Part shown: positions 19,650 through 63,237 of the stretch, in pieces
Layout: each line of letters begins with the position of its first letter
How positions within the stretch are numbered: the stretch's first letter is position 1
Assembly (NCBI GenBank): GCA_964467735.1
Contig: CAYXSR010000002.1
Span: 51,885-115,884 of the forward strand
DNA length: 64,000 nucleotides
Direction of reading: 5' to 3'
Origin: an uncultured Pseudomonadales bacterium
Lineage (GTDB): Bacteria; Patescibacteriota; Microgenomatia; UBA1400; CAYXSR01
Made by a program: the position numbers and the translations under genes
Notes under the pieces: generated by a model
The model's database searches: none
Told to the model about the DNA's origin: nothing
The model's input: the letters and a program-made list of their open reading frames with translations, nothing else

Positions 19650-20026
19650 TTATGAAATCGAAGTTTACTTTTAACAAAAATCAACAATTCATTGATTATC
19701 CATTTGCAAAGACCAAGACTTATAAAAATAAACTCCCAAACTGCAAAAGCTTCGGCCAACCTTTCTCTTTTGGTTATTAAAACAAAAGGAACAGGAATTA
19801 GGAAAAAAATTGCGATTAAGAAAAACCATCTTTCTTCGAAAGATAAAACATAAAAAATTAAAAGCCAATATAAAAAAACAAAAGCAGTAAAAGAACTATT
19901 CAATCCTCTAAAAATAAAAACACCTGCCAAAGATAAAAGGAAACCAGCCAATATGGCTGCTATTCTTATTTTGTTGTTTTTTCTTAAACCTTTAAGAACT
20001 GTATTAATCTTCTTTATTTTATTCAT
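19646..20026 (-). CDS. Small membrane protein (3-4 TM helices), unknown function
   Basis: 126 aa and hydrophobic. It sits between the paralogous giant membrane proteins and overlaps both neighbours by a few nt. Confidence 0.4.
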   Translation of the reverse strand: MNKIKKINTVLKGLRKNNKIRIAAILAGFLLSLAGVFIFRGLNSSFTAFVFLYWLLIFYVLSFEERWFFLIAIFFLIPVPFVLITKRERLAEAFAVWEFIFISLGLCKWIINELLIFVKSKLRFHK

Positions 20027-45408: not shown

Positions 45409-46219
45409 TGGTTTCATTGGCTCTCAACTCATCAAAAAACTTAACACTAGTAAGAAAGATAACATTTGTCACTTTGATAGAAAGGTTTTTTCTCTTTTTT
45501 CTATATCTTCTCTTAAGAATTTCGTTAAAAACAAAGATGTTATTATTCATCTTGCGGGCATTAATCTATCTCAGGATCCAAATGAATACTACTTAGTAAA
45601 CACCTTGGGAACATTAAATTTACTGGAAGCAATTCGGCTTTTTGGAAAAAAGAACTGCCATTTTATTCTCAGCTCTTCATTTGCCATCTACCAGATAAAT
45701 GAAAATAATACAAAGCTTAAAGAAGACAGTTCCCCACTTAAACCAAGAAACCATTATGGAATGTCCAAACTTTTAGCAGAAACTATTGCTAGTCAGTATA
45801 AAGACACAATAGGTAAAATTACTATCCTTAGGATTGCTAATGCCTATGGCAAAAATGACAAACTTATATCTTCACTAATAAATAATCTTATAAAAGGAAA
45901 CAAATTTAAGCTTGATTATCATCCAAAACAAATACGCGATTACATTTATATCGATGATATTGTTAGGGCAATTATTAATACAATCAGATATCAAAAGAAA
46001 AAATTCTCAATCCTTAATGTTTGCAGCGGTAAAAAGACTACAGTCAGTGATTTCTTTAACGAAGTTGAAATGAAACTCAACAAAAAAGGACTAATTAAAT
46101 ATAATAATAAAAGAAAAGAAAATGGATACTGGGTGGGCAATAACAAAAAAGCCTTGAAGGAAATAAAGTTTACTTATATAACTGATTACAAAACAGGAAT
46201 TGCAAAAACATTAAAATGA
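45383..46219 (+). CDS. NAD-dependent sugar-nucleotide epimerase/reductase (SDR family)
   Basis: MIIAITGPDGFIGSQLIKKL Rossmann N-terminus and YGMSK catalytic motif. It overlaps the upstream SDR gene by 26 nt. Confidence 0.55.
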   Translation: MIIAITGPDGFIGSQLIKKLNTSKKDNICHFDRKVFSLFSISSLKNFVKNKDVIIHLAGINLSQDPNEYYLVNTLGTLNLLEAIRLFGKKNCHFILSSSFAIYQINENNTKLKEDSSPLKPRNHYGMSKLLAETIASQYKDTIGKITILRIANAYGKNDKLISSLINNLIKGNKFKLDYHPKQIRDYIYIDDIVRAIINTIRYQKKKFSILNVCSGKKTTVSDFFNEVEMKLNKKGLIKYNNKRKENGYWVGNNKKALKEIKFTYITDYKTGIAKTLK

Positions 46220-47631
46220 TCAAAAAACAGAAAATAATTATAATCGGCGCTGGTACTGCAGGAAAAGAATTATTAAAAGAAATTATCAAGTATAAATACA
46301 AAGAGTTTGCAGTGATCGGCTTTCTAGATGACGATAAAAGAAAAATAGGGACTACAATAAATAAAGTCCCAGTTTTAGATAATATTGACCAGCTTGAAAA
46401 CATTGTTCACAAGGGCAAAATCAAAAGGATATTCATTGCTCTTCCTTCAATCAAAAGCACAGTTATAAATAATATTTTCAGACGTTGCATAATGATTGGT
46501 GTAAATTGCCAAATTGTCCCCAGAATTAGAGAAATAATTGAAGGAAAAGTCGATCTAAAAAGGGTTCGAAATGTTGAAATAGAAGATTTATTGGGAAGAT
46601 CTGTTAGAAAACCGGATCTTAAAAGCATTTTTTCCTTGATAAAAGGACAAACAGTATTGGTGACTGGAGCAGCTGGTTCAATCGGTTCAGAATTATGTCG
46701 CCAGATCGCTTCCTTTAAACCAAAAAAAATTGTCATGTTTGATTGGTGGGAAAATGGACTTTATCAGATGGGAATTGAGTTTCGTGAAACATATCCAACA
46801 ATTGAATGTCTTTTAGTCATCGGCAATATTCAAGATAAAAAAAGAGTAGAAACAATTTTTTCACAATATAAACCATCCTTGATTTTTCATGCAGCTGCTT
46901 TTAAACATGTTCCTCTTATGGAACAACACCCTAGTGAGGCGATTAAAAATAACATCCTTGGAACAAAAATAGTTGCTGATGCATCAAGAAAATACAGGAT
47001 TAAAAAATTTATTTTTGTTTCAACAGATAAGGCAGCTGATCCTAAAAATATTATGGGAATTACTAAATCAATAAGTGAAAGTTTAATTTCATCTTACAAT
47101 CGAGAAACGAAAACAAAATTTATTGCTGTAAGATTTGGAAATGTTTTAGACAGCAATGGAAGTGTACTCCCTTTGTTCCGGAAACAAATATCTAATGGTG
47201 GACCAATCACTATAACCGATGTTAGAATGACCCGCTATTTTATGACTATTCCTGAAGCTGCCCAATTAATACTTAAAGCAGCTACTATTGGCAAAGGCAA
47301 GGAAATTTTTATACTGGATATGGGTAAACCAATAAAAATCATTGATTTGGCAAAAAATTTAATTCTTTTATCCGGTTTTATTCCCAACAAAGACATAAAG
47401 ATAGAAATTGTTGGTAAAAGACCAGGTGAAAAAATTCATGAAAAACTTATTTCAAACAAAGAAAAATTAATAAAAACCGAGTTTAAAGAAATAATGATGG
47501 TCGAAAACAAACAGACTAATAAAGTAAAGTTAAACTCTTTTATTAAAAAACTACTAGAAGCTGCTCTATCAGGAGACCAAAACAAAACACTCAACTTACT
47601 TAAGCAGTTTCCTAAAAACAAATTAATCTAG
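46216..47631 (+). CDS. Nucleotide-sugar (UDP-HexNAc) 4,6-dehydratase, CapD/PglF/WbpM family, soluble form
   Basis: N-terminal KIIIIGAGTAGKELLKEI (CoA-binding-like domain), then VLVTGAAGSIGSELCRQI and FVSTDKAADPKNIMGITK (Polysacc_synt_2-type dehydratase core). There are no N-terminal TM helices. Confidence 0.7.
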   Translation: MIKKQKIIIIGAGTAGKELLKEIIKYKYKEFAVIGFLDDDKRKIGTTINKVPVLDNIDQLENIVHKGKIKRIFIALPSIKSTVINNIFRRCIMIGVNCQIVPRIREIIEGKVDLKRVRNVEIEDLLGRSVRKPDLKSIFSLIKGQTVLVTGAAGSIGSELCRQIASFKPKKIVMFDWWENGLYQMGIEFRETYPTIECLLVIGNIQDKKRVETIFSQYKPSLIFHAAAFKHVPLMEQHPSEAIKNNILGTKIVADASRKYRIKKFIFVSTDKAADPKNIMGITKSISESLISSYNRETKTKFIAVRFGNVLDSNGSVLPLFRKQISNGGPITITDVRMTRYFMTIPEAAQLILKAATIGKGKEIFILDMGKPIKIIDLAKNLILLSGFIPNKDIKIEIVGKRPGEKIHEKLISNKEKLIKTEFKEIMMVENKQTNKVKLNSFIKKLLEAALSGDQNKTLNLLKQFPKNKLI

Positions 47632-49458
47632 ATGTTAACAGGAAAACAAAAAAAATATCTATTAAAGAATGTTAGGAAAGAAAACCTAGCTAAACTGTCA
47701 AAAAGACTGGATGTCCCCAAAAAAGAAATTCTTGCTTATTTTGAAAAACGTTGGTCCAAAGGCAAATTTCAAAAATATCTCAAAAGTTATTTTAAACAAA
47801 ATAATGAGAAAAAAACTAATCATTTTAAACTAAGAAATTTCGTTTCATTTCATAAAAAAGAATTGCTTTTTTTAGTCACTATAGTATTAATTTCATACAT
47901 TAATACTTTAAACAATGACTTTGTCTCTGATGATGTTGCTGCCATTCAGACAAACCCTAATTTACCAACATGGCATAATGTAATTGTTGCTCCCCAAGCA
48001 TTAATCCGTCCATTTCTGAATTATTCTATCTATCATTTGTTTGGCTTAAAACCCTGGGCTTTTAGGATAATTAATATTCTATTTCATTTAGGAACAGTAC
48101 TTATTGTCTATTATTTTATAAGTTTACTCATTAATAAGGCAGTTGGTTTTTTAACGGCCTCGATTTTAGCTGTTCATCCTCTCCAAATTGAAGCAGTAAG
48201 TTGGATTTCCGGCGGACCTTATTCTCAGTATAGCTTCTTTTTAATGTCTTCTCTTCTTTCTTATTACCTTTTTATAAGAAAAAGGAAAGTAAAATATTAT
48301 TTTATATCAATTCTATTATATTTTTTAAGTCTGCAGTCTTCTGAAAGAGCTGCAGTATTACCAATAATGATTTTTGCTTTCTTACTTGCTTATAAAAAGT
48401 TTAAAAAATACTGGCTTTCATTAATACCCTTTATTACCTTAAGTGGTTTCTGGGTTCTTATTTTTATGGGAATAATAAAATCAAGGGTTACTATTCTTCA
48501 GTCCGATTACTACCAAAATGATGGTACAATAAATCCTTTATTTAAAGCTGTTGTTGCTTTTTCTTCTTATTTAGGACTTGCTCTTTTCCCAAAAAACTTA
48601 ACCCTTTACCATTCGGAGCTATCTTTTTCTATTTATGACTTTGTCTTTAGGGTAGTAATCGTTGTCATACTAGGCACTCTCTCCCTACTATGCTTTAAGA
48701 AACAAAAGCATTTTTTCTTCTGGCCAATATTCTTTGCTGTCTCTCTTCTTCCGACACTAACCCCTTTTAATGTCACTTGGGTAGTAGCCGAAAGATATGT
48801 TTATCTTGGCAGTATCGGCTTATATGTTGTCTTTTCGCTGATTGTTTATAAACTTATAAAAAAAATTTCAAACTATAAAAACCTTCATTATAATTATTGG
48901 ACAGTATTACTAATACTAGTAATCATGTTATCATTAAGAACAATTGCAAGAAATATTGATTGGGATAATCAAGATAATCTTTGGCTTTCCGCTGCTAAAA
49001 CCTCTCCTTCAAGCCCCCAAAATCATAACAACTTGGGAGATTTATACACCCGCCAAAAAAACTATCAAAAAGCAATTGAAGAATTTAACAAAGCCATCCA
49101 ATTGAATCCTAATTATGCTGATGCTTATCATAATTTAGCCAATACTTTTTTACAAAGTGGCCAGCCGGAAAAAGCAATTGCTAGCTATCAGAAATCCTTA
49201 GAAATTAATCCAACAATATGGCAATCACATCTCGCTTTAGGCGCTATTTATTTTGATCAAAAAGACTATCAACAAGCAAAATCTCATATACTTGAAGCAA
49301 TTAGCATTAAGCCAAATAATCCAGATCTTTATTCAAATCTTGGTTTAATTTATCTTAAAATTGGAGATTATGAAAAAGCAGTTTCATCTTTAAATAAAGC
49401 GTTAGAAATTGATCCAAACAACAATCGAGCAAAAGATATATTAATAAATTCTAGATAG
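47632..49458 (+). CDS. PMT/TMTC-like GT-C membrane glycosyltransferase with a C-terminal TPR-repeat domain
   Basis: N-terminal loop NTLNNDFVSDDVAAIQTNPNL (F..DD...I..N signature of PMT_2/TMTC-type enzymes), about 9-11 TM helices, then 4-5 TPR repeats (NHNNLGDLYTRQKNYQKAIEEFNKAIQLNPNYADAYHNLANTF...). Confidence 0.65.
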   Translation: MLTGKQKKYLLKNVRKENLAKLSKRLDVPKKEILAYFEKRWSKGKFQKYLKSYFKQNNEKKTNHFKLRNFVSFHKKELLFLVTIVLISYINTLNNDFVSDDVAAIQTNPNLPTWHNVIVAPQALIRPFLNYSIYHLFGLKPWAFRIINILFHLGTVLIVYYFISLLINKAVGFLTASILAVHPLQIEAVSWISGGPYSQYSFFLMSSLLSYYLFIRKRKVKYYFISILLYFLSLQSSERAAVLPIMIFAFLLAYKKFKKYWLSLIPFITLSGFWVLIFMGIIKSRVTILQSDYYQNDGTINPLFKAVVAFSSYLGLALFPKNLTLYHSELSFSIYDFVFRVVIVVILGTLSLLCFKKQKHFFFWPIFFAVSLLPTLTPFNVTWVVAERYVYLGSIGLYVVFSLIVYKLIKKISNYKNLHYNYWTVLLILVIMLSLRTIARNIDWDNQDNLWLSAAKTSPSSPQNHNNLGDLYTRQKNYQKAIEEFNKAIQLNPNYADAYHNLANTFLQSGQPEKAIASYQKSLEINPTIWQSHLALGAIYFDQKDYQQAKSHILEAISIKPNNPDLYSNLGLIYLKIGDYEKAVSSLNKALEIDPNNNRAKDILINSR

Positions 49459-49487: not shown

Positions 49488-49976
49488 TCAAAATCCCATT
49501 TGTTTCTTGATCTTAATGTGTTTCTGATAATGCTCGGGTGGAACTAATTCCTTTAATTTAAATCTTTTGCTTATTCTATATAAAGTCGAATAAGATTTGA
49601 ATAGGATATTATTGGTATAAACATCAACTGTTAAATGAAAAATCAATGAGAGACTAATGGCTAATGCCACAATTTTCATTTCTTTTTCGTCAGATAGTAA
49701 AAAAATTAAAAGACTTACTACTGAATATTCCCAGCCATGAAAAGGGACAATAATCTTATCACTGATTAGAAAATGATAACCCTTTAAAAAATATTTAAAA
49801 TTTATCACTGAACCCATGGCGAAAACATAATCAAATAGATGATCAATGTCAATAAAAACCCCCACTATTACCGCTGGAATAAAACTAAGTATAAGATTTT
49901 TATATATTAAATAAACAATAAAACCTGCAAGCAAACTAAAGAAAAGATGAATGAAAAGATGGAGAAATAATCTCAT
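49488..49976 (-). CDS. Small polytopic membrane protein (possibly DUF457-type membrane-bound metal-dependent hydrolase)
   Basis: 162 aa, about 4 TM helices, His-rich short motifs (IDHLFDY, HGWEY, HLTVDVY). It has a 4-nt overlap with the upstream radical SAM gene. The family assignment is weak. Confidence 0.3.
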   Translation of the reverse strand: MRLFLHLFIHLFFSLLAGFIVYLIYKNLILSFIPAVIVGVFIDIDHLFDYVFAMGSVINFKYFLKGYHFLISDKIIVPFHGWEYSVVSLLIFLLSDEKEMKIVALAISLSLIFHLTVDVYTNNILFKSYSTLYRISKRFKLKELVPPEHYQKHIKIKKQMGF

Positions 49977-51451
49977 TTATTTTTTTTACTAAAATCACTC
50001 AATTTGCCGAAATATTTTAAAGCCATAATAAAATAAGTTTTTACATCTTCCCAGGATCTGATTGATAAAATTTTCCTGATAATAAATTCGGGAGTTATAA
50101 AACTACTATATAGTTTTTGAACCATTACTTTTAATTCTTTTTCGCCAACTGGGCTTTTCATAATCGCACTTCTCATATCATAGTCATCCCAGTCTTCGGT
50201 TAGCAACCATTTATTTTTTTTACAATCTTTAAAAAGCGGCGTTCCAGGATAAGGAATAACTATCGTTGCCTGCATAGAATCGGCATAACCTTTTTTGAAT
50301 AACTTTTTTGCCAGGTCTAGCGTCCTTTGCGTATCTTTTTTATTTTCCCAAGGATAACCAACCATAACTGTATAATGTGGCTCTAATCCTGCTTGTTTGG
50401 CTTTTTTTATTCCTTCCTTTATTTGTTTAACTTTTAAATTTTTATTAATTTTGTCTAATGTCTTTTGATTAGCTGACTCTAACCCATATAGAATAAATCT
50501 AAAACCTGCTTTTTTCATTAATTGGTAATCGCTTAAAGACAAGCCGCAATTAAAACGCATATTGCAATCAATAGTTACTTTTTTATTAAGACCACGTTTA
50601 ATCATCTTCCTGCAAAACTCTCTTAACCAATCACCAACTGGAAAAGTACCAGAATCATCCATAATTTCTTTTACTTTTAAATTCTCCACTAAGTGATTAA
50701 TTTCTTTTAAAACATTATCCACTGATCTTACCCGATATTTTTCGCCAGGAAAAAGGGTTGTCCATGAGCAAAAAGTACACTTTCCCCACCAACAATCTCT
50801 GCCTGCCATAATATAAGTTCCGGGATATTTTTTAAAATTTGAATTTTTATAGGCATAAAGCTGCCATTTTGTAAGTTTGCGGTCAATTATTGGAGTCTGG
50901 TTAAGATCATGCGCCAAATTAAATCTACCTGTCGATTTAATTTTCCCCTTCTTTTTCCAGTAAAATCCCGGCTCTAATTTCACCTTATCTTTGGTTTGTA
51001 AATATTTGGCCAAATTTAAAAGTAAAAAGTCAAAGTCACCTCCAGTTAAAATATAATCAACAGGAGAATTTTCAAGCGATTCTTTCGGCAATGCGGTTAC
51101 GTGATCACCCATTAAGACTATTTTCATCTTTCTGTTTGTCTTTTTTAAATCTTTTATTATCTGCCAATATCTTTTAACTACTGGAGTTTTAACCTCAAAA
51201 GCAATCAAATCGGGTTTAATTTTCTTAACACTGTTTAAAAATTGTCTGTATGTCTTTTTCTCAGCAATGTAATCCAGCCAATAAACTTTAAAACCGGCAT
51301 TCTTTAACATTGTTGCTGCGGTAGCTGGAACTACCGGATAAATGAAATAAGCTGTTTTTTTGTCAGTAAACCATTGAAACTGTCTGTTTTGTGATAATAA
51401 CGGCGTTCCTTTTTCTGACTCAAGAGGCGGATATGCAATAGCTATTTTCAT
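49973..51451 (-). CDS. B12-binding-domain radical SAM protein (class B-like)
   Basis: N-terminal Rossmann-like B12-binding region (KIAIAYPP...IAFEVKTP...KIVLMGDHVTALP). The radical SAM core has a cysteine triad at AGRDCWWGKCTFCSW, counted as C-X4-C-X2-C rather than the canonical C-X3-C-X2-C. Downstream TIM-barrel-like motifs are present (GLESANQKTLDKINK). Confidence 0.6.
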   Translation of the reverse strand: MKIAIAYPPLESEKGTPLLSQNRQFQWFTDKKTAYFIYPVVPATAATMLKNAGFKVYWLDYIAEKKTYRQFLNSVKKIKPDLIAFEVKTPVVKRYWQIIKDLKKTNRKMKIVLMGDHVTALPKESLENSPVDYILTGGDFDFLLLNLAKYLQTKDKVKLEPGFYWKKKGKIKSTGRFNLAHDLNQTPIIDRKLTKWQLYAYKNSNFKKYPGTYIMAGRDCWWGKCTFCSWTTLFPGEKYRVRSVDNVLKEINHLVENLKVKEIMDDSGTFPVGDWLREFCRKMIKRGLNKKVTIDCNMRFNCGLSLSDYQLMKKAGFRFILYGLESANQKTLDKINKNLKVKQIKEGIKKAKQAGLEPHYTVMVGYPWENKKDTQRTLDLAKKLFKKGYADSMQATIVIPYPGTPLFKDCKKNKWLLTEDWDDYDMRSAIMKSPVGEKELKVMVQKLYSSFITPEFIIRKILSIRSWEDVKTYFIMALKYFGKLSDFSKKNK

Positions 51452-51510
51452 AATCTTAAACTTTTATAACAAACTAAAATTATAATAACTTTTTAAGAAT
51501 AAAACCATAT

Positions 51511-52554
51511 TTAATAAAGTTTACTTGATAATAATCCTTTAATAAATCTTATTCCATAGTAAATATGGCTAACCAAAATTGTTGGTATTACAAACAAACC
51601 AACAATAATTTTTTTACTCTTTATTGTTACCCAAAATCCGGTAATTAAAAGAAGTAAAATATAAAAAGAAATTGTACAAAAATAAATAAGACTAAAAATA
51701 TGCGATAAAAGCTGAAGTTTTAAAAATCTTAAGAAAATAATAATAAACGGACTAAATAGTAAGCCCAAAGTAAATAATGACGGCAGAAAATAACCTAATC
51801 TTCTCGAGGTTTTAGGAAGTATTTTTACAAAAAATCCTCTATGAAAACCATACCTTCCTAATTGTTTAAGATGTTTTTTAAAAATTTTTCGACGGTGATG
51901 ATGGACGATAACTTTTGGGTCATAAATTATCTTTTTTCTTAACTTATAAACAATATCGTGGCACAACTTAGTATCTTCACCAGGATAAAAACGAGAATTA
52001 AAACCACCCAACTTTTCAAAATCTTTTTTTCTAATAAGTAAGTTAAATGTCGGATAGTCATCTACTAGTTGTTTTTTTCCCGGAAAACAACGGTAAGTTC
52101 CTGCTCCCCCTGCTCCTAACCAAGAACTCCACATCCATCCGGATACTTGCTGTTGCCAACAATTATTTCTTGGTGTTAATCCGGGACCGCCAACGGCAGC
52201 AATTTTCAGATCATTAAAATTTAGCAATGCATTTTCAAGCCACTGACGGTCTGGATATGCATCATCATCGATAAAGGCTAAAATTTCTCCTTTTGCCAGA
52301 TTTGCACCTAAATCTCTTTTTTTTGCCGGCCCTTTTTCATTTGTCCTTATAATCCTTAAAGAATATTTATATTTTTTATTTAATTTTTTATCCCTTTCGC
52401 TCAATTCATCAACTACAATTATTACTTCAAATTCTTTATAAGTTTGCTTTGCTAAGCTAGGAAGTAACTCTTTGCTAATATAATCATTAATTTTAAGTAC
52501 CGGGACAATAACCGAAAACATTCTTCTTTTATTTAACTTTTGTTTTTTTTGCAT
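51511..52554 (-). CDS. Glycosyltransferase family 2 with C-terminal transmembrane domain
   Basis: FSVIVPVLKINDYISKELLPSLAKQTYKEFEVIIVVDE...AFIDDDAYP, followed by about 4 TM helices. Confidence 0.65.
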   Translation of the reverse strand: MQKKQKLNKRRMFSVIVPVLKINDYISKELLPSLAKQTYKEFEVIIVVDELSERDKKLNKKYKYSLRIIRTNEKGPAKKRDLGANLAKGEILAFIDDDAYPDRQWLENALLNFNDLKIAAVGGPGLTPRNNCWQQQVSGWMWSSWLGAGGAGTYRCFPGKKQLVDDYPTFNLLIRKKDFEKLGGFNSRFYPGEDTKLCHDIVYKLRKKIIYDPKVIVHHHRRKIFKKHLKQLGRYGFHRGFFVKILPKTSRRLGYFLPSLFTLGLLFSPFIIIFLRFLKLQLLSHIFSLIYFCTISFYILLLLITGFWVTIKSKKIIVGLFVIPTILVSHIYYGIRFIKGLLSSKLY

Positions 52555-53287
52555 AATAATTAAGGATTCTTAACCGATAAAAGACTGCTAAAGTATCCCA
52601 AAGCATTAAAAATATAGCTTTGTAAGTAGCGGCACTAGTTAAACCACCAAACTGGAATTCCAATCTTATTGGGGCGTCATAAATCCTTTTATATCCGAAT
52701 GATCTAGCTACTGCTAGCATCTCGATATCAAAAGCATATTTCTTAACTAACAATACCGGCAGAATCTTTTTTAGTACTGGTTTTTTAAAAACTTTAATTC
52801 CTGCCTGAGTATCTGTTACTTTAACGCCAAATAAAATTTTGACAATATTATAATACCCCCAGCTTAGAATCTTTCTAATCAGGGGGTACTCAACCTGGGA
52901 AACCGGATGCCTTTTTGAACCAACAATTATATCAGCATCATACCAAATCAAGTGTTGTAAAAGCATAGAAATCCCAATCGGGTCGATTTCCAAACCCGCA
53001 TCTATAAAAGAAACATAATCTCCTTTTGATTTTTTCATTCCAAATCTAATTGCATACCCTTTCCCTTGATTCTTTTTATATGAATAAACTCTAATTTTAC
53101 TTGAGGCCGCTTTTTTTGCATTTTTATATGAGTTATCAATTCTCCCATCGACAACTACCACTATTTCGTAGTTCCATCCTGACTGATCAAGTGTTTTTTT
53201 AATCCTTAAAAGATCTTTTTTAATTGTTTTTCCTTGTTTATAAACAGGAATAATGACTGAAAGCAAAAAGTTATCTAAGTTTCTCAT
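52529..53287 (-). CDS. Polyprenol-monophosphate glycosyltransferase (Dpm1/GtrB/ArnC-like GT2)
   Basis: LSVIIPVYKQGKTIKKDL...YEIVVVVDGRIDNS...KNQGKGYAIRFGMKKSKGDYVSFIDAGLEIDP...DADIIVGSKR (DxD...GSR architecture of the Dpm1 family). Confidence 0.6.
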   Translation of the reverse strand: MRNLDNFLLSVIIPVYKQGKTIKKDLLRIKKTLDQSGWNYEIVVVVDGRIDNSYKNAKKAASSKIRVYSYKKNQGKGYAIRFGMKKSKGDYVSFIDAGLEIDPIGISMLLQHLIWYDADIIVGSKRHPVSQVEYPLIRKILSWGYYNIVKILFGVKVTDTQAGIKVFKKPVLKKILPVLLVKKYAFDIEMLAVARSFGYKRIYDAPIRLEFQFGGLTSAATYKAIFLMLWDTLAVFYRLRILNYYAKKTKVK

Positions 53288-54563
53288 TATTAAAATTAGA
53301 ATATATTAAAAGACTAATAACTAGTATAGCAGTTGCGCTAGTTGAGCTAATAATAATTTGATAAATATCTTGATGAAATAATTTTATCAGTAATATTTGA
53401 ACAAGAGCGGCTCCTAAAGGAAAATATCCGATTAGCTTATCTTCAAGGGCCATATAAAAACTGGTTAAAACATTTGCTAAGCTATAAAAAGAAATAAAAA
53501 TTGAAAAAATTCCAAGATAACGAGCCGCCGCTAAATACTTTTTGCCGTACAACATAAATAAAATAGTTTTAGGAAAAGTAAAATAAAGCAAGGCCAAAAA
53601 TAAACAAACCAGCAGGATAAATCCTAAAGTCAAATACAGCGGCTTTCTGTAGTTTGTATTCTCTTCTTTTTTCTTGATTGTCAAAGGCATCATTACTGTT
53701 AAAATTGGAGAAGAAGCAAAAAAGATTACTTTGCCAAGAACCGAAGCACTTGAATACAAACCAGCATCAAAACTAGATAAGTAATGCTTCGTTAAAACTA
53801 TATCAGAAGTATACAGGCTTGTCATTCCTAAAACAGCTAAGAAGACTGGCAGTGAATTTATCCAGAAACCCTTAATGTTTATTTCCTTTATTTCTCCATC
53901 CTTATCCCCTTCTCTGTTTTTTAAAACAAAAGGAATAAAACTTATTGTTAGGATTATTGCACCTGATAAAATTATTGCTCCCAATATTTTTCCAATTGAA
54001 ATACCAACTAAAGTTAGCAAAAATACAAAAACAATCTTTAAAATCCCTCCACCAACACTTATGCCGGCTAAAAATTTGAAGTTCATCAGTGCTTGGGTAA
54101 AGGCAAGGTTTGGAATATTAATAAAGGCCACAAAACTGACAAAAGCGGCAAGGATAATAAAGTTGGGGTTATCAATCTTTAAAAATGTTGCCAGTGGTCT
54201 ACTTAAAATATAACAAACCAGGTTTATAAACATTCCCAATATAAATACTTGCCAATAGGATTTTTTAAAGAAACTAATTGCCTCTGCCTTTTTTTTTCTA
54301 GACCATAATTTAGCTATTTCTCTCATTATCGTTGTTAGGATTACTGTTGAAAAAATACCAGTAAAGTAAGTCAAAGAGATAAGACTTGTTAGCACTGCAT
54401 AGTCTTTGGGTCCTAAAACTCTACCTGTTATCAGGTGAAAAAGATAATTTGTGACATTGCCTAAAAAATTACCAGCGGTCAGAATAAAACTGCCGGCAAA
54501 TAGTGGATGTTTTATAATCCTCTTAATTTTATCTCTCATAAATTTATGATACCCACCAACCAC
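53271..54563 (-). CDS. Wzx-like flippase (MOP superfamily polysaccharide biosynthesis protein)
   Basis: 430 aa, about 12 TM helices. N-terminal SFILTAGNFLGNVTNYLFHLITGRVLGPKDYAVLTSLISL resembles the Polysacc_synt N-terminus. Confidence 0.55.
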   Translation of the reverse strand: MVGGYHKFMRDKIKRIIKHPLFAGSFILTAGNFLGNVTNYLFHLITGRVLGPKDYAVLTSLISLTYFTGIFSTVILTTIMREIAKLWSRKKKAEAISFFKKSYWQVFILGMFINLVCYILSRPLATFLKIDNPNFIILAAFVSFVAFINIPNLAFTQALMNFKFLAGISVGGGILKIVFVFLLTLVGISIGKILGAIILSGAIILTISFIPFVLKNREGDKDGEIKEINIKGFWINSLPVFLAVLGMTSLYTSDIVLTKHYLSSFDAGLYSSASVLGKVIFFASSPILTVMMPLTIKKKEENTNYRKPLYLTLGFILLVCLFLALLYFTFPKTILFMLYGKKYLAAARYLGIFSIFISFYSLANVLTSFYMALEDKLIGYFPLGAALVQILLIKLFHQDIYQIIISSTSATAILVISLLIYSNFNNEKLR

Positions 54564-55620
54564 GAGTAAATAGGGCGGTTAAAATAATTGAAAGCAGCAA
54601 ACTTAGAACAACTACCGTGTTGTAAATTTTATTATTTTTAATACAACCAATTAAAATAAAAACACTAAAAGCCGGAAGCACATATCTTGGTATAGAAGAA
54701 AAAGTTCCGGTTAAAGTGGGTAAGATAATTATTAATATTGAAAATAATCCATAAGATTTCCTAACCTTAAAGTATGAAATAATGGCTAAATACAAGAATG
54801 AAATCGCCATAACAAATTCTAAAATCGCAATCCAAAAATCATAACTTTTAACCGGAACAGTGAAAAAGATCTTCAGATAACGCCAAATAACTTGATAAAT
54901 AAGGACTAATCTACCACCAGATCGATTGGCTCCAAAGGCTGGCTGAGCATGAAAGAAAAATAAAGGATCCTGTACGTTTTTCCAAAGATAAGACATATAA
55001 GAAAAAAGTCCTAATGGAATAAGTATTAACCAAGAAAGGTCTTTAAGGTATCTCTTTTTTTTAATTTGTTCTTTCCATTCTATAATTAAAGCCAATAGTA
55101 AAATTATTCCTATTAGTCTTGTAGCACTCGCCAAGCAACCAAGAACACCAGCTAACCACCATTTTTTCTTTCTTACCGCATAAAAACTTCCCAATATCAA
55201 TGCTAAAAACAATGATTCTGTATACACTGAAGCAAAGAAAAATGAGGTAGGAAAGATTAACAATAAAAGTAGACTTCTTTTTGCAACCTTTTTGTTGAAA
55301 TCAAGCCTTACCAACTTAAATAGTAAAACAAGACTAATGAAGAATGAAAAATAAGAGATAACAAAAGCGCTTAATAAAAAATTATGACCTAAGAAAAATG
55401 ATAGTTTTTTTATTAACCACGGATATAAAGGGAAAAAGGCCTGCTCATATTGAACATAACTTATCTTTGCAATTGATAAATAATGCAGGCCGTCAAAATT
55501 GGCCCAGACTGATGGCCCTAAAAATCCCAAACGTTGGGGAATAAATCTTTTTGCTAACAAGGAGATTATTTCTAAAAAAATTCTCCAAAATGTTAAACTA
55601 GCAATAATAAACCAATGCAT
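54544..55620 (-). CDS. GT-C-like membrane mannosyltransferase-family protein (PIG-V/GT87-like)
   Basis: VWANFDGLHYLSIAKISYVQYEQAFFPLYPWLIK resembles the W..wDg.hYl.IA..GY...FfPlyP signature of PIG-V-type mannosyltransferases; about 9 TM helices. Confidence 0.45.
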   Translation of the reverse strand: MHWFIIASLTFWRIFLEIISLLAKRFIPQRLGFLGPSVWANFDGLHYLSIAKISYVQYEQAFFPLYPWLIKKLSFFLGHNFLLSAFVISYFSFFISLVLLFKLVRLDFNKKVAKRSLLLLLIFPTSFFFASVYTESLFLALILGSFYAVRKKKWWLAGVLGCLASATRLIGIILLLALIIEWKEQIKKKRYLKDLSWLILIPLGLFSYMSYLWKNVQDPLFFFHAQPAFGANRSGGRLVLIYQVIWRYLKIFFTVPVKSYDFWIAILEFVMAISFLYLAIISYFKVRKSYGLFSILIIILPTLTGTFSSIPRYVLPAFSVFILIGCIKNNKIYNTVVVLSLLLSIILTALFTRGWWVS

Positions 55621-60077: not shown

Positions 60078-60856
60078 TATTTTATTTTCTGTTCAATTTT
60101 TTTATACTTTTTTTCGGTTTCATTTTGTAATTCCCAAAGACGAACATAAGTAAAAAATAAAGAGAATGTTTGATATATCCCTTCTATTATCCCTTCTACT
60201 CCCTCTCTGAATAATCTCCTTTTTCCAAAATTTTCCCATAACCCAGTAACAAATATTCTTAGAAAACGCCAACTGTTCATTTTTGGGTGTCCAGATTTGA
60301 AACAGTTTCTTGCCTCAAGCTTAGACCACCAAATTGTCTTCTCCAACATCTGTTCTAAACTAAGATGAGTTAAATGAATTAAGGGGGTTTTAAGACTAGT
60401 AACTTTACCATCTATCTCAGCGGTTTCATGAATGGTCCCCCGCCATTCTTTCAATTTCTTTTTTTTAATCAAACGAATCATATCATCGGGCCAAACGCTT
60501 TTAAATTCTTTTCCTAGAAAAAAATTTCTGCGAGGAATTCTAAAAGCTACATATCCATTTGTCTCTATATTTCTAGTTATTTCTTCTTTTAATTCTTTAG
60601 TACACCTCTCGTCAGAATCAATATACAATAACCATTCCCCTTTTGCTTCTTTTGCTCCTTGATTCCGCCAAAAAGAAAAATCATCCTTTACCTTTGATTT
60701 TATAACTCTCCCTCCATATTTTTTAATAATTTTATCCGTTTCATCTATTGAACCAATATCTATCCCAATAATTTCATTTGTCCATTTTATTGTTTCTAAA
60801 CATTTAGCAATAGTTTGTTCGTTGTTTTTAAACAAAATAATTGTACTTATTTTCAT
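60077..60856 (-). CDS. Glycosyltransferase family 2 (GT-A), tandem paralog 2
   Basis: MKISTIILFKNNEQTIAKCLETIKW...IGIDIGSIDETDKII...LYIDSDERC. Confidence 0.7.
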   Translation of the reverse strand: MKISTIILFKNNEQTIAKCLETIKWTNEIIGIDIGSIDETDKIIKKYGGRVIKSKVKDDFSFWRNQGAKEAKGEWLLYIDSDERCTKELKEEITRNIETNGYVAFRIPRRNFFLGKEFKSVWPDDMIRLIKKKKLKEWRGTIHETAEIDGKVTSLKTPLIHLTHLSLEQMLEKTIWWSKLEARNCFKSGHPKMNSWRFLRIFVTGLWENFGKRRLFREGVEGIIEGIYQTFSLFFTYVRLWELQNETEKKYKKIEQKIK

Positions 60857-61599
60857 TTTTTCTTTTTAAAAAGTCTCCCTTCTCTATTTAGAACATAAAG
60901 CATAAGATTCCATAAAATAGCCAAACCATATCTAACAGAAGCATAAAAATTCGCTGAAGAAGCTTCTGGAAAATATCTTACCGGCACAGCAATTTCACCA
61001 ATTTTAAAATTATTAGCTACTGCAGAAAGCAAAATCTGTTGATCAAAAACAAAATCATTTGAAAACCGACCGAAAGGTACCTTTTTTAAAATCTTTTTAG
61101 TAAATGCTCTCATTCCTGTGTGATATTCAGAAAGATTTAATCCCAAAAACATATTTTCCAATACAGTTAGAAAGCGATTACTTATATATTTCCACCAAGG
61201 CATGCCACCAGCTAAAGCCTCTTGGCGAGTACGAATTCTACTCCCTAACATTATATCGAATCGGCCATCCAATATTGGTTTTACTAAATCAGGGATTAAA
61301 GTCGGATCATATTGATAATCAGGGTGAATCATAATTATAATATCAGGGTTTCTTTTTAGAGCTTCCCAATAACAGGTTTTTTGATTGCCACCATATCCTA
61401 AATTACTAGGGTGAACAAAAACTTCTAATCCTAATTTTTGGGCCATTTTTACTGTCTTATCAGAACTTGCGTCATCAACAACTAAAACTTCATCAACTAA
61501 ATCTTTGGGAATATCTTTATATGTTTTTTCTATTGTCCCGGCTGCATTATAAGCAGGCATTACCACAATAATTTTCTTTTTTGTATGTCTTTTTTTCAT
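60853..61599 (-). CDS. Polyprenol-monophosphate glycosyltransferase (Dpm1/ArnC/GtrB-like GT2)
   Basis: IIVVMPAYNAAGTIEKTYKDIP...VLVVDDASSDKTVKMAQKLG...IIIMIHPDYQYDP...DIMLGSRI. Its 5' end is 13 nt from the start of the ArnT-like gene at 61612..63237. Confidence 0.7.
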   Translation of the reverse strand: MKKRHTKKKIIVVMPAYNAAGTIEKTYKDIPKDLVDEVLVVDDASSDKTVKMAQKLGLEVFVHPSNLGYGGNQKTCYWEALKRNPDIIIMIHPDYQYDPTLIPDLVKPILDGRFDIMLGSRIRTRQEALAGGMPWWKYISNRFLTVLENMFLGLNLSEYHTGMRAFTKKILKKVPFGRFSNDFVFDQQILLSAVANNFKIGEIAVPVRYFPEASSANFYASVRYGLAILWNLMLYVLNREGRLFKKKK

Positions 61600-61611
61600 C
61601 CGCTATTCTTA

Positions 61612-63237
61612 TTATATCTTGAAAATGTGAAGGATCGGTTCTCCATTTAAAAGATAAATTGTTTTTATAATTTTTGCGTCTCCCGGCAATTCTTTATCTG
61701 TGACTACCCACCATATTTTATCTCTTTTATCTTCTTTTTCCCAATCAAATCGAACAAATTCATATTTGCCGATTTTGTGTTCTTCCCAAAAGCCACCCGA
61801 TATAGTACCACCTTGCTCTAAATATTTTGCCGGATTATACTTTTTATAAAATAGAAAAAACATATAAGGTTGTTCTGCTTCGATTGAAATCCTAACCTTC
61901 TCATATTTATTTTCTAATTTCTCTAACTCTTTGAAAAGTTCTTTATACCCATATTGCCAATAACGAGAATATTCTATTGGTTGATGAATATGATATTGAT
62001 GTAAATAAAAAATAAAATTGACTAGAAAGAGACCTGTTGTTACAAAATAGATTATAGCTGTTATTAATTTGTTCTTTAAACTATTGCCCCATCTAATAAA
62101 TGCCAATACTCCTAAAGCAGTGAAAACATGCCATGTTGGTAAGAAACATAAAGTCCGAACTGCATGAGGGACATCAGCCGAAACAGAAGCAGCAATAGGA
62201 GCCAGTAACCACCAACTAAAAATAATTAATTTTGGTTTCTTATCTGGCCAAAAGAAAAGAGAATAAATTCCCCATAAAATAAAAGGTAACTCCCAAAAGT
62301 AAAGCATTCCGACATCGGGAACGTGATGTCTTTGAACATCTCCTTCTCCATTAACAAATAGCCAATTTGGATTAAAATGAGCCGTATAACTTTCTAAGAA
62401 TCTTAGAACATAACGAATTCGTCGATTATGAACCAACGAACCCCACCAAATTCCTTTTTCTAAATCTTGGCTTATTTTTTTACTATCTTTAGACAATAAG
62501 TTAATTGTGTCAGAAAAAGCACTTACTCCCTTTAATCTCATTTGTCCTTCTGTGCTCGTCATAATTTTTACCAATGGCCAAATAAAAATTAAAGCAATAA
62601 TTCCGCTTAACAAAACTATTTTCTTTATTTTCAAAAGTTGCCTGAAATAAGTCATTATTAGAACCAAAACTAAAAACGGCACAAATACTCTGGCGCTATG
62701 ATAAGTGTATAAAGCTAATCCGAAAGACAATGTTGAAAGTAGTAGGAAGAATTTATTTTTTTTGACTGATTTTAAGAATAATATCGTCCCTAAAATTTCC
62801 CAAGCCAAAGCAACGTTTGCCTCAAAAGCAATTCGAGAAAACTGCAAATGCCAAGGTGAAATCGCCATAAAAAACATGGATAAGAGTGCTAAATTTTCTT
62901 TCTTAAACAACAGTTTTATTAAAAAGTAAACACCAATAACGCCAATTACTCCAAAAACTGCTGATGGTAAACGAACCGCAAAAAGATTTACTCCGAAAAC
63001 AATTATTGAAGGAATTGTTAAATAAAAATATAAAGGTGGCTTATAATCGTCAAAAGATCGAAAAGTCAACGGAAATTTCACTCCATATTCGTCTTTTCCT
63101 GTTTTCCAAATTGAATAGGCATTCCAGCCAATAGCTGCTTCATCCCAATCAGGACTAGGTGGCACTTTCGCCAGATTCCAGAATCTTAAACCAATCGCTA
63201 AAGCTAAAATTAAAATAAAAATAATTTTTTTTCTCAT
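61612..63237 (-). CDS. ArnT/PMT-family GT-C membrane glycosyltransferase (GT39/GT83-like)
   Basis: RFWNLAKVPPSPDWDEAAIGWNAYSIWKTGKDEYGVKFPLTFRSFDDYKPPLYFYLT (DE..Y...KPPLyfy signature); about 12 TM helices plus a C-terminal soluble domain. Confidence 0.7.
   Translation of the reverse strand: MRKKIIFILILALAIGLRFWNLAKVPPSPDWDEAAIGWNAYSIWKTGKDEYGVKFPLTFRSFDDYKPPLYFYLTIPSIIVFGVNLFAVRLPSAVFGVIGVIGVYFLIKLLFKKENLALLSMFFMAISPWHLQFSRIAFEANVALAWEILGTILFLKSVKKNKFFLLLSTLSFGLALYTYHSARVFVPFLVLVLIMTYFRQLLKIKKIVLLSGIIALIFIWPLVKIMTSTEGQMRLKGVSAFSDTINLLSKDSKKISQDLEKGIWWGSLVHNRRIRYVLRFLESYTAHFNPNWLFVNGEGDVQRHHVPDVGMLYFWELPFILWGIYSLFFWPDKKPKLIIFSWWLLAPIAASVSADVPHAVRTLCFLPTWHVFTALGVLAFIRWGNSLKNKLITAIIYFVTTGLFLVNFIFYLHQYHIHQPIEYSRYWQYGYKELFKELEKLENKYEKVRISIEAEQPYMFFLFYKKYNPAKYLEQGGTISGGFWEEHKIGKYEFVRFDWEKEDKRDKIWWVVTDKELPGDAKIIKTIYLLNGEPILHIFKI

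Follow-up and report, generated by a model that had tools for sequence, protein, structure and literature searches.

The window, that is, the whole stretch of 64,000 nucleotides that was analyzed, includes a 608-amino acid ORF on the plus strand (nucleotides 47632 to 49458, ATG to stop, with exactly the limits given in an earlier sequence-only reading of this DNA) that codes for a putative GT-C glycosyltransferase with a C-terminal TPR domain. Its ATG is located immediately 3' of the TAG of the upstream gene and the N-terminus aligns with the first residues of the homologues, and we therefore consider this start codon to be correct. An identical protein (P0001) is found in public data (NCBI and Logan) on a 116-kb contig. 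The AlphaFold model of the full-length protein has a pLDDT of 89.3 and a pTM of 0.83. The family includes 4,846 cluster representatives at E ≤ 1e-30; it is abundant in CPR/Patescibacteria and uncharacterized, and neither a characterized prokaryotic relative nor biochemical data for a prokaryotic member were found in the searchable literature. Public databases already label such genes automatically as 'protein O-mannosyl-transferase' or 'TPR protein'. A promoter and terminator scan found no terminators, and 37 promoter-like sites against 30.7 ± 6.2 expected.

The membrane domain encompasses amino acids 75 to 444 (nucleotides 47854 to 48963, plus strand), and 11 transmembrane (TM) helices were counted in the model. 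Pfam PMT_2 (PF13231) matched residues 132 to 273 with an E value of about 1e-6, passing the gathering score of 26.1 narrowly, at 29.3 bits when the full protein was scanned and at 30.1 bits with the membrane domain alone. It also matched the membrane domains of 10 of 18 homologues, and the membrane domain of our protein matched neither Pfam PMT (PF02366) nor the MIR domain. When the full-length protein was used to search the PDB, either by sequence or with Foldseek, TPR proteins dominated the results, for which reason the membrane domain was modelled separately by AlphaFold (pLDDT 81.9) and compared with the PDB using Foldseek. All seven matches at E ≤ 0.001 were catalytic subunits of oligosaccharyltransferases, such as STT3 (8b6l_I, 8.5e-5) and AglB (7e9s). 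Weaker matches of high probability were also GT-C proteins, namely PglB, Pmt4, ArnT, Emb, AftD, ALG9/12 and DPY19. The TM-scores were between 0.36 and 0.48 for all GT-C structures, a shallow ranking that does not discriminate among them. Comparison of the membrane domain with PDB sequences, as a single sequence or as an 18-sequence profile, gave no matches, to TMTC or otherwise. By the model, the membrane part has the GT-C fold. The fraction of K+R in 41 sequences was 0.237 in the predicted inner loops versus 0.070 in the outer loops (3.4-fold), and this charge distribution predicts a cytoplasmic N-terminus and an external position for all conserved motifs and for the TPRs. The sequence-only reading depended on similarity to the PMT/TMTC families and on a TPR domain outside the cytoplasm; the former is found in the PMT_2 match and the GT-C structures, and the latter is what the charge bias predicts. 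The protein is very probably a GT-C enzyme whose TPR domain lies outside the membrane.

The conserved residues are grouped in several motifs. The N-terminal FVSDDVAAIQTN motif, which had been recognized from the sequence, is located at residues 97 to 108 (nucleotides 47920 to 47955, plus strand) in the first external loop, after TM1 and on the predicted outer side. It includes the putative catalytic pair D100 and D101, and S99, D100 and D101 are invariant in 41/41 family members. This loop corresponds to M1 of TMTC, to D55/E56 of ArnT and to D77/E78 of Pmt1 (PMC7801869). The motif A180-V-H182-P183-x3-E187-x3-W191-I192-S-G-G-x-Y197, located at TM3 and external loop 2 (nucleotides 48169 to 48222, plus strand), has H182, P183, E187, W191 and I192 invariant in the 41 sequences, and its first residues are comparable to those of human TMTC3 (118-134, ...LLFAVHPIHT; PMC7801869). 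External loop 5 (nucleotides 48751 to 48804, plus strand) has the sequence P374-x3-P378 ... A386-E387-R388-Y389-x-Y391, in which A386, E387, R388, Y389 and Y391 are each found in 41/41 sequences. E387-R388-x-x-Y391 matches the ERxxY of TMTC M7 ('AERV', R404 in TMTC1; PMC7801869), and R388, the predicted phosphate-binding residue, matches the lipid-phosphate-binding Arg of STT3, PglB and AglB. From the invariant R388 and the adjacent Dpm1-like synthase described below, we infer a lipid-phosphate-linked sugar donor.

External loop 4, between TM7 and TM8 (N301-P302 ... P320-x-x-L-T-L-Y326-H327-S-E329; nucleotides 48532 to 48621, plus strand), includes the invariant residues Y313, P320, L323 and Y326 (41/41), as well as H327 (38/41) and E329 (39/41). 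It occupies the position of the TMTC loop that includes DUF1736 and the DW motif (PMC7801869), and in the model it is similar in length to the DUF1736 segment and has a membrane-parallel helix. While DUF1736 is found in all human TMTCs at E < 1e-30 (PMC7801869), this domain (PF08409) had no match at E ≤ 1 in our protein or in any of 18 homologues and was absent from the precomputed domains of 120 homologues. The DW of TMTC M5 is replaced by Y326-H327, and the positions of the R and D of M3 (RxD), +8 and +10 from the Glu after AVHP, are G195 (37/41) and Y197 (33/41); these counterparts were placed by spacing from the published TMTC residue numbers and not by a computed alignment to TMTC. The anchor for the M3 spacing is a Glu that we take to follow the HPIHT of TMTC3. 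In TMTC, M3 and M5 are the modelled mannose and metal contacts (PMC7801869). Since both are replaced, 'mannosyl' is not established for this protein. Other motifs have partial counterparts: M2 (SHKSYRP) is reduced to R126 (30/41)-P127 (14/41), M4 (KE[T/Q]xxT) is permuted to S237-E238 (32/41)-K/R239, and M6 (PxxP in TM9) is represented by P374-x3-P378, with a different spacing to the ER motif. An additional motif at the junction of TM11 and the TPRs, R440-N441-x-D-W444-x-N-x-D448-x-L450-W451 (nucleotides 48949 to 48984, plus strand), is invariant by conservation counts and absent from the published TMTC motifs M1 to M7.

In the model, a single short helix separates the end of TM11, near residue 444, from the first TPR helix, which begins at residue 462. 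The TPR domain (amino acids 462 to 607, nucleotides 49015 to 49452, plus strand) consists in the model of four helix pairs (462-593) and a capping helix (598-607), in agreement with the four to five repeats that had been counted from the sequence. TPR families matched four stretches over residues 460 to 600 (E = 1e-40 to 1e-30), among them Pfam TPR_1, TPR_2 and TPR_8 with four stretches each (E = 1e-40 to 1e-35), the best natural PDB matches were to the TPR domain of OGT (E = 2.8e-51), and weak NCBIfam TPR matches were to BcsC and PgaA. The residues on the concave face are almost invariant across the family, distant lineages included, a pattern that could equally well come from a single conserved ligand other than a protein or from a contact within the molecule.

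The N-terminus is a lysine-rich, predicted cytoplasmic domain of four helices with a helix-turn-helix (HTH)-like arrangement (amino acids 1 to 63, nucleotides 47632 to 47820, plus strand). The pLDDT is about 85-92 over residues 1 to 50, and the 18 members compared share L2, Q6, K7, Y9, L26 and K45 without exception. Its weak matches were all HTH folds: 2x48 (E = 0.006), YlxM (1xsv, 0.04), GerE, sigma-70 region 4 and Pfam HTH_10 (3.3e-4). The domain is missing from a subset of the homologues. The domain and the conserved gene block described below are correlated (23/27 against 4/13, Fisher p = 0.001), but we place no reliance on this, as the value ignores phylogeny and a Dpm1-like gene also adjoins several of the homologues that lack the domain.

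Downstream of the GT-C/TPR gene, five genes are transcribed from the minus strand. The first of them codes for a 162-amino acid protein with four TM helices predicted by hydropathy (nucleotides 49488 to 49976), which had no Pfam or NCBIfam match and was found near the GT-C/TPR gene in 11 of 40 well-flanked loci (at the same position in locus L004). Nucleotides 49973 to 51451 encode a B12-binding radical SAM enzyme (Pfam B12-binding and Radical_SAM) that is closest to HpnJ, although the NCBIfam HpnJ match, over positions 25 to 456 of 472, reaches 187 bits with a cutoff of 577. It is followed by a GT2 glycosyltransferase, GT2_347 (nucleotides 51511 to 52554; Pfam Glycos_transf_2 and Glyco_trans_2_3), with three predicted C-terminal TM helices (amino acids 260 to 334), whose best PDB matches were 5tze, deposited only as 'Glycosyl transferase', and GalT1 (5hea); its NCBIfam match to AglG, a glucosyl-dolichyl-phosphate glucuronosyltransferase, was far below the cutoff (72 bits). 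GT2_252 (nucleotides 52529 to 53287) is a Dpm1-like polyprenyl-phosphate sugar synthase without TM helices. Among PDB structures it was closest to the Pyrococcus Dol-P-Man synthase 5mlz (E = 1.9e-13 over residues 7 to 210), with ArnC and GtrB next, and the NCBIfam matches to PgfS, ArnC, PpgS and AglJ were all far below their cutoffs. The last gene (nucleotides 53271 to 54563) encodes a MOP/Wzx-like protein with eight or more hydrophobic segments, a candidate flippase for lipid-linked sugars; its Pfam Polysacc_synt match is borderline (28.1 bits, cutoff 28.2), the MatE match is weak, and there was no NCBIfam match.

Almost all genes of this 64-kb island are polysaccharide genes, including those for a PglC-like phosphoglycosyltransferase, many GT2 and GT4 enzymes, a Wzx-like protein, sugar-nucleotide enzymes and methyltransferases, and a ManC-like GDP-mannose pyrophosphorylase gene is located within the window. 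Six other GT-C-like proteins are encoded in the island, all without TPRs, and the GT-C ORFs at 61612-63237 and 6652-8079 match PF02366. The second of the two Dpm1-like synthases that the sequence-only reading had noted is also found (nucleotides 60853 to 61599; best matches AglJ, PpgS and Dol-P hexose transferase) and forms with a GT-C gene a pair at 60853-63237. A 126-amino acid protein with four TM helices (19646-20026) was considered as a GtrA-type flippase and rejected, as it had no Pfam or NCBIfam support.

The neighborhood was compared in 40 well-flanked homologous loci, those that extend 5 kb or more to either side of the GT-C/TPR gene. GT2_347 was found near this gene in 28/40 (70%), GT2_252 in 25/40 (62%), the Wzx-like gene in 23/40 (58%) and the radical SAM gene in 21/40 (52%). 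Within the block the gene order is tightly conserved and stop and start codons overlap. In a set of 55 loci that spans several CPR classes with only 35-45% protein identity, a gene of the block directly abuts the GT-C/TPR gene in 32 (58%); the two are convergent in 24 of these, divergent in 6 and co-directional in 2. In several loci seeded on the partner gene GT2_347, the GT-C/TPR gene is nested within the block. A linkage that is kept through rearrangement argues for functional coupling between the gene and the block. A link to the ribosomal-SecY-Adk-Map operon (locus L003) was found in one contig only and was discarded.

The protein can be compared with several known GT-C systems. As in TMTC1-4, there are 11 TM helices, a cytoplasmic N-terminus and non-cytoplasmic TPRs placed directly after TM11 with no intervening domain (PMC7801869), and the two also share the DD of external loop 1, AVHP...E at TM3 and external loop 2, ERxxY in external loop 5 and Pfam PMT_2, and in part the prolines of TM9 (PMC7801869). 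On the other hand, TMTC has DUF1736, RxD in M3, DW in M5, KE(T/Q) in M4 and a complete M2, where our protein has no Pfam match to that domain, G..Y, Y-H, S-E-K and a partly conserved R-P, respectively; TMTC also has about ten TPRs rather than four, and the present protein is bacterial and carries the extra conserved cytoplasmic N-terminal domain. Thus, the PMT_2/TMTC fold proposed by the sequence-only reading holds for the GT-C fold, the PMT_2 match, the 11 TM helices and the DD, AVHP...E and ERxxY motifs, and it fails at DUF1736, M3 and M5. Judged by its sequence features, the protein is TMTC-like in build, not a demonstrated TMTC. Human TMEM260, an O-mannosyltransferase, likewise has a GT-C core of 11 TM helices and its TPR domain on the non-cytoplasmic side, but between TM11 and the TPRs it carries a Rossmann-like domain of ~150 residues where our protein has a single helix. 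The TPR domain of TMEM260 suffices to bind the acceptor peptide (preprint 10.64898/2026.03.17.711096).

ArnT (GT83), the lipid A aminoarabinose transferase, shares Pfam PMT_2 and the fold (Foldseek 5ezm/5f15, E about 3e-2, probability 0.99-1.00), an Asp-acid pair in external loop 1 and, as donor, a polyprenyl-phosphate monosaccharide that a GT2 of the Dpm1/ArnC type synthesizes; it differs in having 13 TM helices, a small periplasmic domain, no TPR and a lipid acceptor. STT3, AglB and PglB came out first in the structural comparison of the membrane domain (E = 8.5e-5 to 1e-2). They have the lipid-phosphate-binding Arg before TM10 and glycosylate proteins, but they carry a large C-terminal OST domain instead of TPRs, form N-linkages to Asn and use pyrophosphate- or phosphate-linked oligosaccharides as donors. 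The PMT/POMT enzymes (GT39) of fungi, animals and actinobacteria belong to the GT-C clan, have the DE/DD motif in loop 1, O-mannosylate proteins from polyprenyl-phosphate mannose, and were matched by Foldseek (Pmt4 9i5k, E = 1.5e-2; Pmt1-Pmt2 6p25). They differ in the presence of a MIR beta-trefoil in a luminal loop, the lack of TPRs and the formation of dimers (PMC7759382).

Taken as a whole, the locus may encode a TMTC-type GT-C enzyme that receives its donor from the neighboring block and has a protein acceptor, a reading to which we assign a probability of about 0.5. The Dpm1-like GT2_252, which has no TM helix, would make a polyprenyl-phosphate-linked sugar on the cytoplasmic face; the membrane GT2 and the HpnJ-like radical SAM enzyme may modify it further, and the Wzx-like protein would flip it. 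Very probably, the active site is formed by the external loops with D100/D101, H182-P183...E187, Y326-H327-x-E329 and E387-R388, and the four-repeat TPR domain lies directly above this site, outside the membrane. The GT-C domain would bind the flipped donor through R388 and a metal site, and the sugar, which need not be mannose, would be transferred to a hydroxyl of an acceptor held in the TPR groove. As acceptor we favor Ser/Thr of a secreted or surface protein because of the precedent of TMTC1-4 and of TMEM260, whose TPR domain recruits the acceptor peptide; by this analogy a protein acceptor is plausible. The complete O-mannosylation circuit that had been proposed from the sequence is retained in part: the Dpm1-like synthases, the Wzx-like protein and the conserved neighborhood agree with it, while the flippase assignment is borderline and the mannose contacts are replaced.

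To our knowledge, TMTC1-4 and TMEM260, all eukaryotic, are the only GT-C enzymes with TPRs studied so far. In humans, cadherins and plexins are O-mannosylated by these enzymes, whose loss leads to disease. The glycobiology of CPR/Patescibacteria, whose host-attached lifestyle depends on the cell surface, is essentially unknown. As a genome annotation the gene is ordinary, one among thousands of similar genes. The Dpm1-like synthase, the membrane GT2, the HpnJ-like radical SAM enzyme, the Wzx-like protein and the GT-C/TPR protein make, however, a compact conserved set for heterologous expression, which could reveal both the sugar and the acceptor of a bacterial TMTC-like enzyme. A more elaborate picture, which we regard as speculative and very unlikely in all its parts together, is that of a self-contained CPR surface-glycosylation module: the HTH-like N-terminal domain would dock the Dpm1-like synthase, as DPM3 tethers DPM1 in animals, the radical SAM enzyme would remodel the sugar before flipping, and the four TPRs would select a conserved surface protein, for example of the pilin or S-layer type. 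Such a module would be a bacterial equivalent of the animal TMTC pathway, with an unusual non-mannose sugar, and might be related to the ancestor of that pathway.

The same chemistry could be directed to a glycopolymer or lipid of the envelope (peptidoglycan, a teichoic-acid-like polymer, a lipoglycan or the polysaccharide of the island itself), with the TPRs as a scaffold or a polymer-binding module, so that the enzyme would resemble ArnT, EmbA-C/AftD or Gtr-type GT-C enzymes. We consider this possible, if somewhat doubtful. The location of the gene among polysaccharide genes and of six TPR-less GT-C-like proteins in the same island are in its favor, as are the Foldseek matches to ArnT, Emb and AftD and the near invariance of the TPR groove across distant lineages, which fits a single conserved ligand. 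TPR modules are also present in bacterial polysaccharide export proteins such as BcsC, PgaA and PelB; however, these exporters are associated with the outer membrane, which CPR bacteria, as far as we know, are generally thought to lack. Besides, the TPR-less GT-C proteins already cover the glycan and lipid roles in the island, leaving the TPR domain as the sole distinguishing feature of this enzyme, and the TPR-bearing GT-C enzymes that have been studied, TMTC and TMEM260, have protein acceptors and a peptide-binding TPR. Transfer en bloc is a further alternative, in which the Dpm1-like and the membrane GT2 would build a short oligosaccharide on polyprenyl-phosphate, the radical SAM enzyme would modify it, the Wzx-like protein would flip it and the GT-C/TPR protein would act like an oligosaccharyltransferase, in parallel to the archaeal AglJ/AglG/AglR/AglB route. 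That STT3, AglB and PglB head the Foldseek matches must be read with the shallow ranking of the GT-C structures, and that GT2_252 matches AglJ and GT2_347 matches AglG, with NCBIfam scores far below the cutoffs. The MOP-type protein, the usual kind of flippase for oligosaccharide-lipids, the tight order of the block and its overlapping codons are consistent with this route, but the large C-terminal OST domain is missing, the one motif noticed in this respect, the invariant D-W-x-N-x-D-x-L-W of the junction, is unrelated to the WWDXG type, and the relatives in the PMT_2 clan (TMTC, PMT and ArnT) use monosaccharide donors. We regard it as quite improbable.

A different question, concerning the source of the donor only and compatible with either kind of acceptor, is whether the neighborhood is coincidental in a dense glycan island, in which case the donor would come from elsewhere and the Dpm1-like/Wzx block would serve a TPR-less GT-C of its own. 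When the search was seeded on GT2_347, the GT-C/TPR gene was within 6 kb in 10 of 28 well-flanked loci, and nearby in 26-36% overall, whereas a TPR-less GT-C (GTC358-type) was in the operon of the Dpm1-like gene in about 13 of the 28 and could, because of this shared operon, be the real consumer of the donor. In the window, the GT-C/TPR gene is convergent to the block and not co-transcribed with it, and the presence of the second Dpm1-like and GT-C pair also speaks for a coincidence. We nonetheless think coincidence unlikely, in view of the adjacency kept in 58% of loci from several CPR classes at low identity and in three arrangements, and of the loci in which the gene is nested inside the block. 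The co-directional upstream genes (a GT2, two epimerases and a PglF/PseB-like dehydratase), which had been considered as partners and rejected, are not conserved: of the 40 loci, a single one had the PglF-like gene, and 20-22% had the epimerases.

The ORF at 47632-49458 (+) is clean and codes for a 608-amino-acid protein, referred to here as the GT-C/TPR protein. Its ATG comes directly after the TAG of the upstream gene, and the start is taken to be correct because the first residues line up with the N-termini of homologues. The motif FVSDDVAAIQTN, the PMT_2-type membrane body and the TPRs that the sequence-only reading had attributed to this ORF were all found. The motif occupies residues 97-108 (positions 47920-47955), Pfam PMT_2 matches residues 132-273 with 29.3-30.1 bits (gathering score, 26.1), and TPR families match four stretches within residues 460-600 with E values of 1e-40 to 1e-30.

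Comparison of the membrane domain to the PDB by sequence, using either the single sequence or a profile, produced no match, and searches with the full-length protein were swamped by TPR proteins. The AlphaFold model of the full-length protein has a pLDDT of 89.3 and a pTM of 0.83. Residues 1-455 were modelled separately (pLDDT 81.9) and compared to the PDB using Foldseek. All seven matches at E ≤ 0.001 were oligosaccharyltransferase catalytic subunits (STT3, AglB), followed among the high-probability matches by PglB, Pmt4, AftD, EmbA/B/C, ArnT, ALG9/12, Pmt1-Pmt2 and DPY19. On the strength of this model the GT-C fold of the membrane domain can be considered established; TM-scores among the GT-C matches were 0.36-0.48, and with so little separation between GT-C families no subfamily was assigned. 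The model includes 11 TM helices. The N-terminus is lysine-rich (22 K/R in 74 residues), and if it is taken as cytoplasmic all short positive loops (RK, YKK, FKKQK, IKKISNYK) lie inside and all conserved motifs outside. In 41 homologues, K and R make up a fraction of 0.237 of inner-loop residues versus 0.070 of outer-loop residues. This bias places the four-repeat TPR domain outside the membrane and not in the cytoplasm, the location named beforehand as incompatible with a role in protein glycosylation. The protein is a GT-C enzyme whose predicted external active site is made up of invariant DD, HP...E, YH.E and ER motifs.

The motif definitions published for the eukaryotic protein O-mannosyltransferases TMTC1-4 (PMC7801869) were compared to conservation counts of the family. 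The TMTCs and the GT-C/TPR protein share 11 TM helices, an internal N-terminus, an external C-terminus and TPRs located directly after TM11. Three motifs are kept in 41/41 sequences: M1 (DD, external loop EL1) as D100 and D101; the AVHP...E motif at TM3/EL2, which in human TMTC3 reads LLFAVHPIHT (PMC7801869), as H182, P183 and E187; and M7 (ERxxY, EL5) as E387, R388 and Y391. In TMTC1, M7 is "AERV", and its R404 is a lipid-phosphate contact common to STT3, PglB and AglB (PMC7801869). Partial matches were found for M4 (K-E-T/Q, here S-E-K), M2 (a partly conserved R-P only) and M6 (PxxxP with a different spacing), whereas M3 (RxD) is replaced by G195/Y197 and M5 (DW) by Y326-H327 followed by a conserved E329. 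The protein also fails one test that defines the TMTC family proper: while every human TMTC has a DUF1736 match at E < 1e-30 (PMC7801869), Pfam searches found none in this protein or in any of 18 homologues. In the published models, TMTCs contact mannose through M2 and M3 (PMC7801869); with M2 only partly kept and M3 replaced here, mannose as the sugar is unjustified; the ManC-like GDP-mannose pyrophosphorylase gene in the window does not justify it either. The proposed TMTC-like O-mannosyltransferase thus stands, as judged from motifs and model, in its architecture and part of its catalytic signature, and is not sustained as regards DUF1736, M3, M5 and mannose. In TMEM260, the other GT-C/TPR enzyme, core and TPR are separated by a Rossmann-like domain (10.64898/2026.03.17.711096) that is absent from the AlphaFold model of our protein. 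Where TM11 meets the TPRs (positions 48949-48984), the conservation counts revealed an invariant R-N-x-D-W-x-N-x-D-x-L-W, without counterpart among the published TMTC motifs, which is possibly an acceptor-side element.

Residues 1-63 (positions 47632-47820) form a conserved, lysine-rich, confidently modelled four-helix domain that is predicted to be cytoplasmic. Its matches are weak but consistent, all of them being helix-turn-helix folds: 2x48 (E = 0.006), YlxM 1xsv (E = 0.04), Pfam HTH_10 (E = 3.3e-4), as well as GerE and sigma-70 region 4. The domain is fused to a membrane glycosyltransferase. The domain is missing in about a third (13/40) of the well-flanked GTDB loci, and the conserved gene block described below accompanies 23/27 loci that have it versus 4/13 that do not (Fisher p = 0.001, not corrected for phylogeny).

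The gene closes a run of five co-directional genes, in which it is preceded by a GT2, two epimerase/dehydratases and a PseB/PglF-like 4,6-dehydratase (46216-47631, +). The N-terminus of the latter carries the CoA-binding-like domain of PglF/WbpM-type enzymes, and no TM helix was predicted in the protein. These upstream genes were rejected as conserved partners, the PglF-like gene occurring in only 1 of the 40 homologous loci that extend 5 kb or more to both sides. The conserved part of the context is the convergent block downstream, all on the minus strand: a Wzx-like gene (53271-54563; 58% of the 40 loci), the Dpm1-like GT2_252 (52529-53287; 62%), the membrane GT2_347 (51511-52554; 70%), a B12 radical SAM gene (49973-51451; 52%) and a gene for a 162-amino-acid 4-TM protein (49488-49976; 28%). 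In 32/55 loci the immediate neighbour of the GT-C/TPR gene is a block gene (24 convergent, 6 divergent, 2 co-directional). In the PDB, GT2_252 is best matched by Pyrococcus Dol-P-Man synthase 5mlz (E = 1.9e-13), with ArnC and GtrB next, marking it as a genuine Dpm1-type enzyme, and GT2_347 is by its PDB matches similar to glycan-elongating GT-A enzymes. For the radical SAM enzyme the closest family is HpnJ (187 bits, well under the family cutoff), which suggests, speculatively, that a lipid-linked sugar undergoes radical remodelling.

The linkage was also examined from the other side, starting from 80 metagenome loci seeded with GT2_347. This gene is nearly always flanked by GT2_252 and the radical SAM gene, frequently with 4-bp stop/start codon overlaps, and a GT-C/TPR gene, sometimes nested in the block on the opposite strand, lies within 6 kb in only 10 of the 28 loci flanked by 3 kb or more and in 5 of the 19 flanked by 4.5 kb or more. 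The block is thus an independent unit that the GT-C/TPR enzyme often, not always, accompanies. A TPR-less GT-C-like protein of 358 amino acids (54544-55620, -), which weakly matches PMT_2, PIG-V and AZOBR_p60025 ("cell surface glycopolymer formation"), is encoded in the window immediately upstream of the Wzx-like gene, and its type occupies that place in the operon of the Dpm1-like gene in about 13/28 seeded loci; it could plausibly use the lipid-linked donor instead of, or alongside, the GT-C/TPR enzyme. The operon (49488-54563), consisting of the Wzx-like, GT2_252, GT2_347, HpnJ-like and sometimes 162-amino-acid protein genes, is very tightly conserved and widespread in CPR metagenome contigs, with or without a GT-C/TPR gene nearby.

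A Dpm1-like synthase and a MOP-type protein are conserved neighbours of the gene. In the mechanism that we propose, a polyprenyl-phosphate sugar would be made inside the cell, flipped to the outside and transferred there to an acceptor held by the TPR domain. The TPR of TMEM260 alone binds acceptor peptide (10.64898/2026.03.17.711096), and analogy with TMTC and TMEM260 makes Ser/Thr of a protein the most likely acceptor. That the acceptor is instead a glycan or a lipid is a serious rival possibility. Less weight is given to an oligosaccharyltransferase-like reaction, in which a short lipid-linked oligosaccharide built by GT2_252 and GT2_347 would be transferred en bloc.

The entire window is a glycan island, with many GT2 and GT4 enzymes, methyltransferases, sugar-nucleotide dehydratases, aminotransferases and acetyltransferases. 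At its far end, genes for a PglC-like phosphoglycosyltransferase (Bac_transf, E = 2e-63) and a ManC-like mannose-1-phosphate guanylyltransferase (604-2316, -) add a conventional undecaprenyl-pyrophosphate glycan route and a supply of GDP-mannose to what the island encodes. Six more GT-C-like proteins lack TPRs; five match PMT_2, two of them below the cutoff, and one DUF2079. The two Dpm1-like synthases noted from the sequence were both recovered. The second (60853-61599, -; 248 amino acids), with best matches to AglJ, PpgS and Dol-P hexose transferase, is beside a 541-amino-acid GT-C (61612-63237, -; PMT_2 59.5 bits, PMT 31 bits) that by Pfam is closer to classical PMT/ArnT-type enzymes than the GT-C/TPR protein. 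Several very large multi-TM proteins lack a family match; four without Pfam matches, of 1025 (8072-11149, -; about 21 predicted TM segments), 685 (17592-19649, -), 1157 (20019-23492, -) and 972 amino acids (23497-26415, -), may be further GT-C-like or polymerase-like enzymes. In each of the last three, about nine N-terminal TM helices are followed by a large soluble region and then a single C-terminal TM helix.

The G+C content of the window is about 30%, and an identical protein is present in NCBI and Logan public data on a 116 kb contig. Membrane-domain homologues are about 600 amino acids long with the same layout and 36-48% identity, and those named are labelled [quoted passage not shown], Candidatus Beckwithbacteria or "protein O-mannosyl-transferase" (JGI). 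A GTDB scan with one genome per species confirmed 198 loci, the best 80 being mostly from Microgenomates (Daviesbacteria, Shapirobacteria, Roizmanbacteria, Beckwithbacteria, Levyibacteria, WWE3), Moranbacteria and Omnitrophota. A membrane-domain profile search of 1.84 billion cluster representatives returned 4,846 at E ≤ 1e-30 and 87,196 at E ≤ 0.001, so the gene belongs to a large family within a very large superfamily. No prokaryotic TMTC-like enzyme was found described in the searchable literature, the only remark in PMC7801869 being "homologues even among prokaryotes". Taken singly, the gene is ordinary and already auto-annotated, a further PMT_2-clan GT-C with TPRs of a kind already known; the conserved module with the extra cytoplasmic domain constitutes a concrete, testable system for CPR surface glycosylation. 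In some genomes two GT-C/TPR paralogues are adjacent, in tandem at one locus (L082) and on opposite strands at another (L083).
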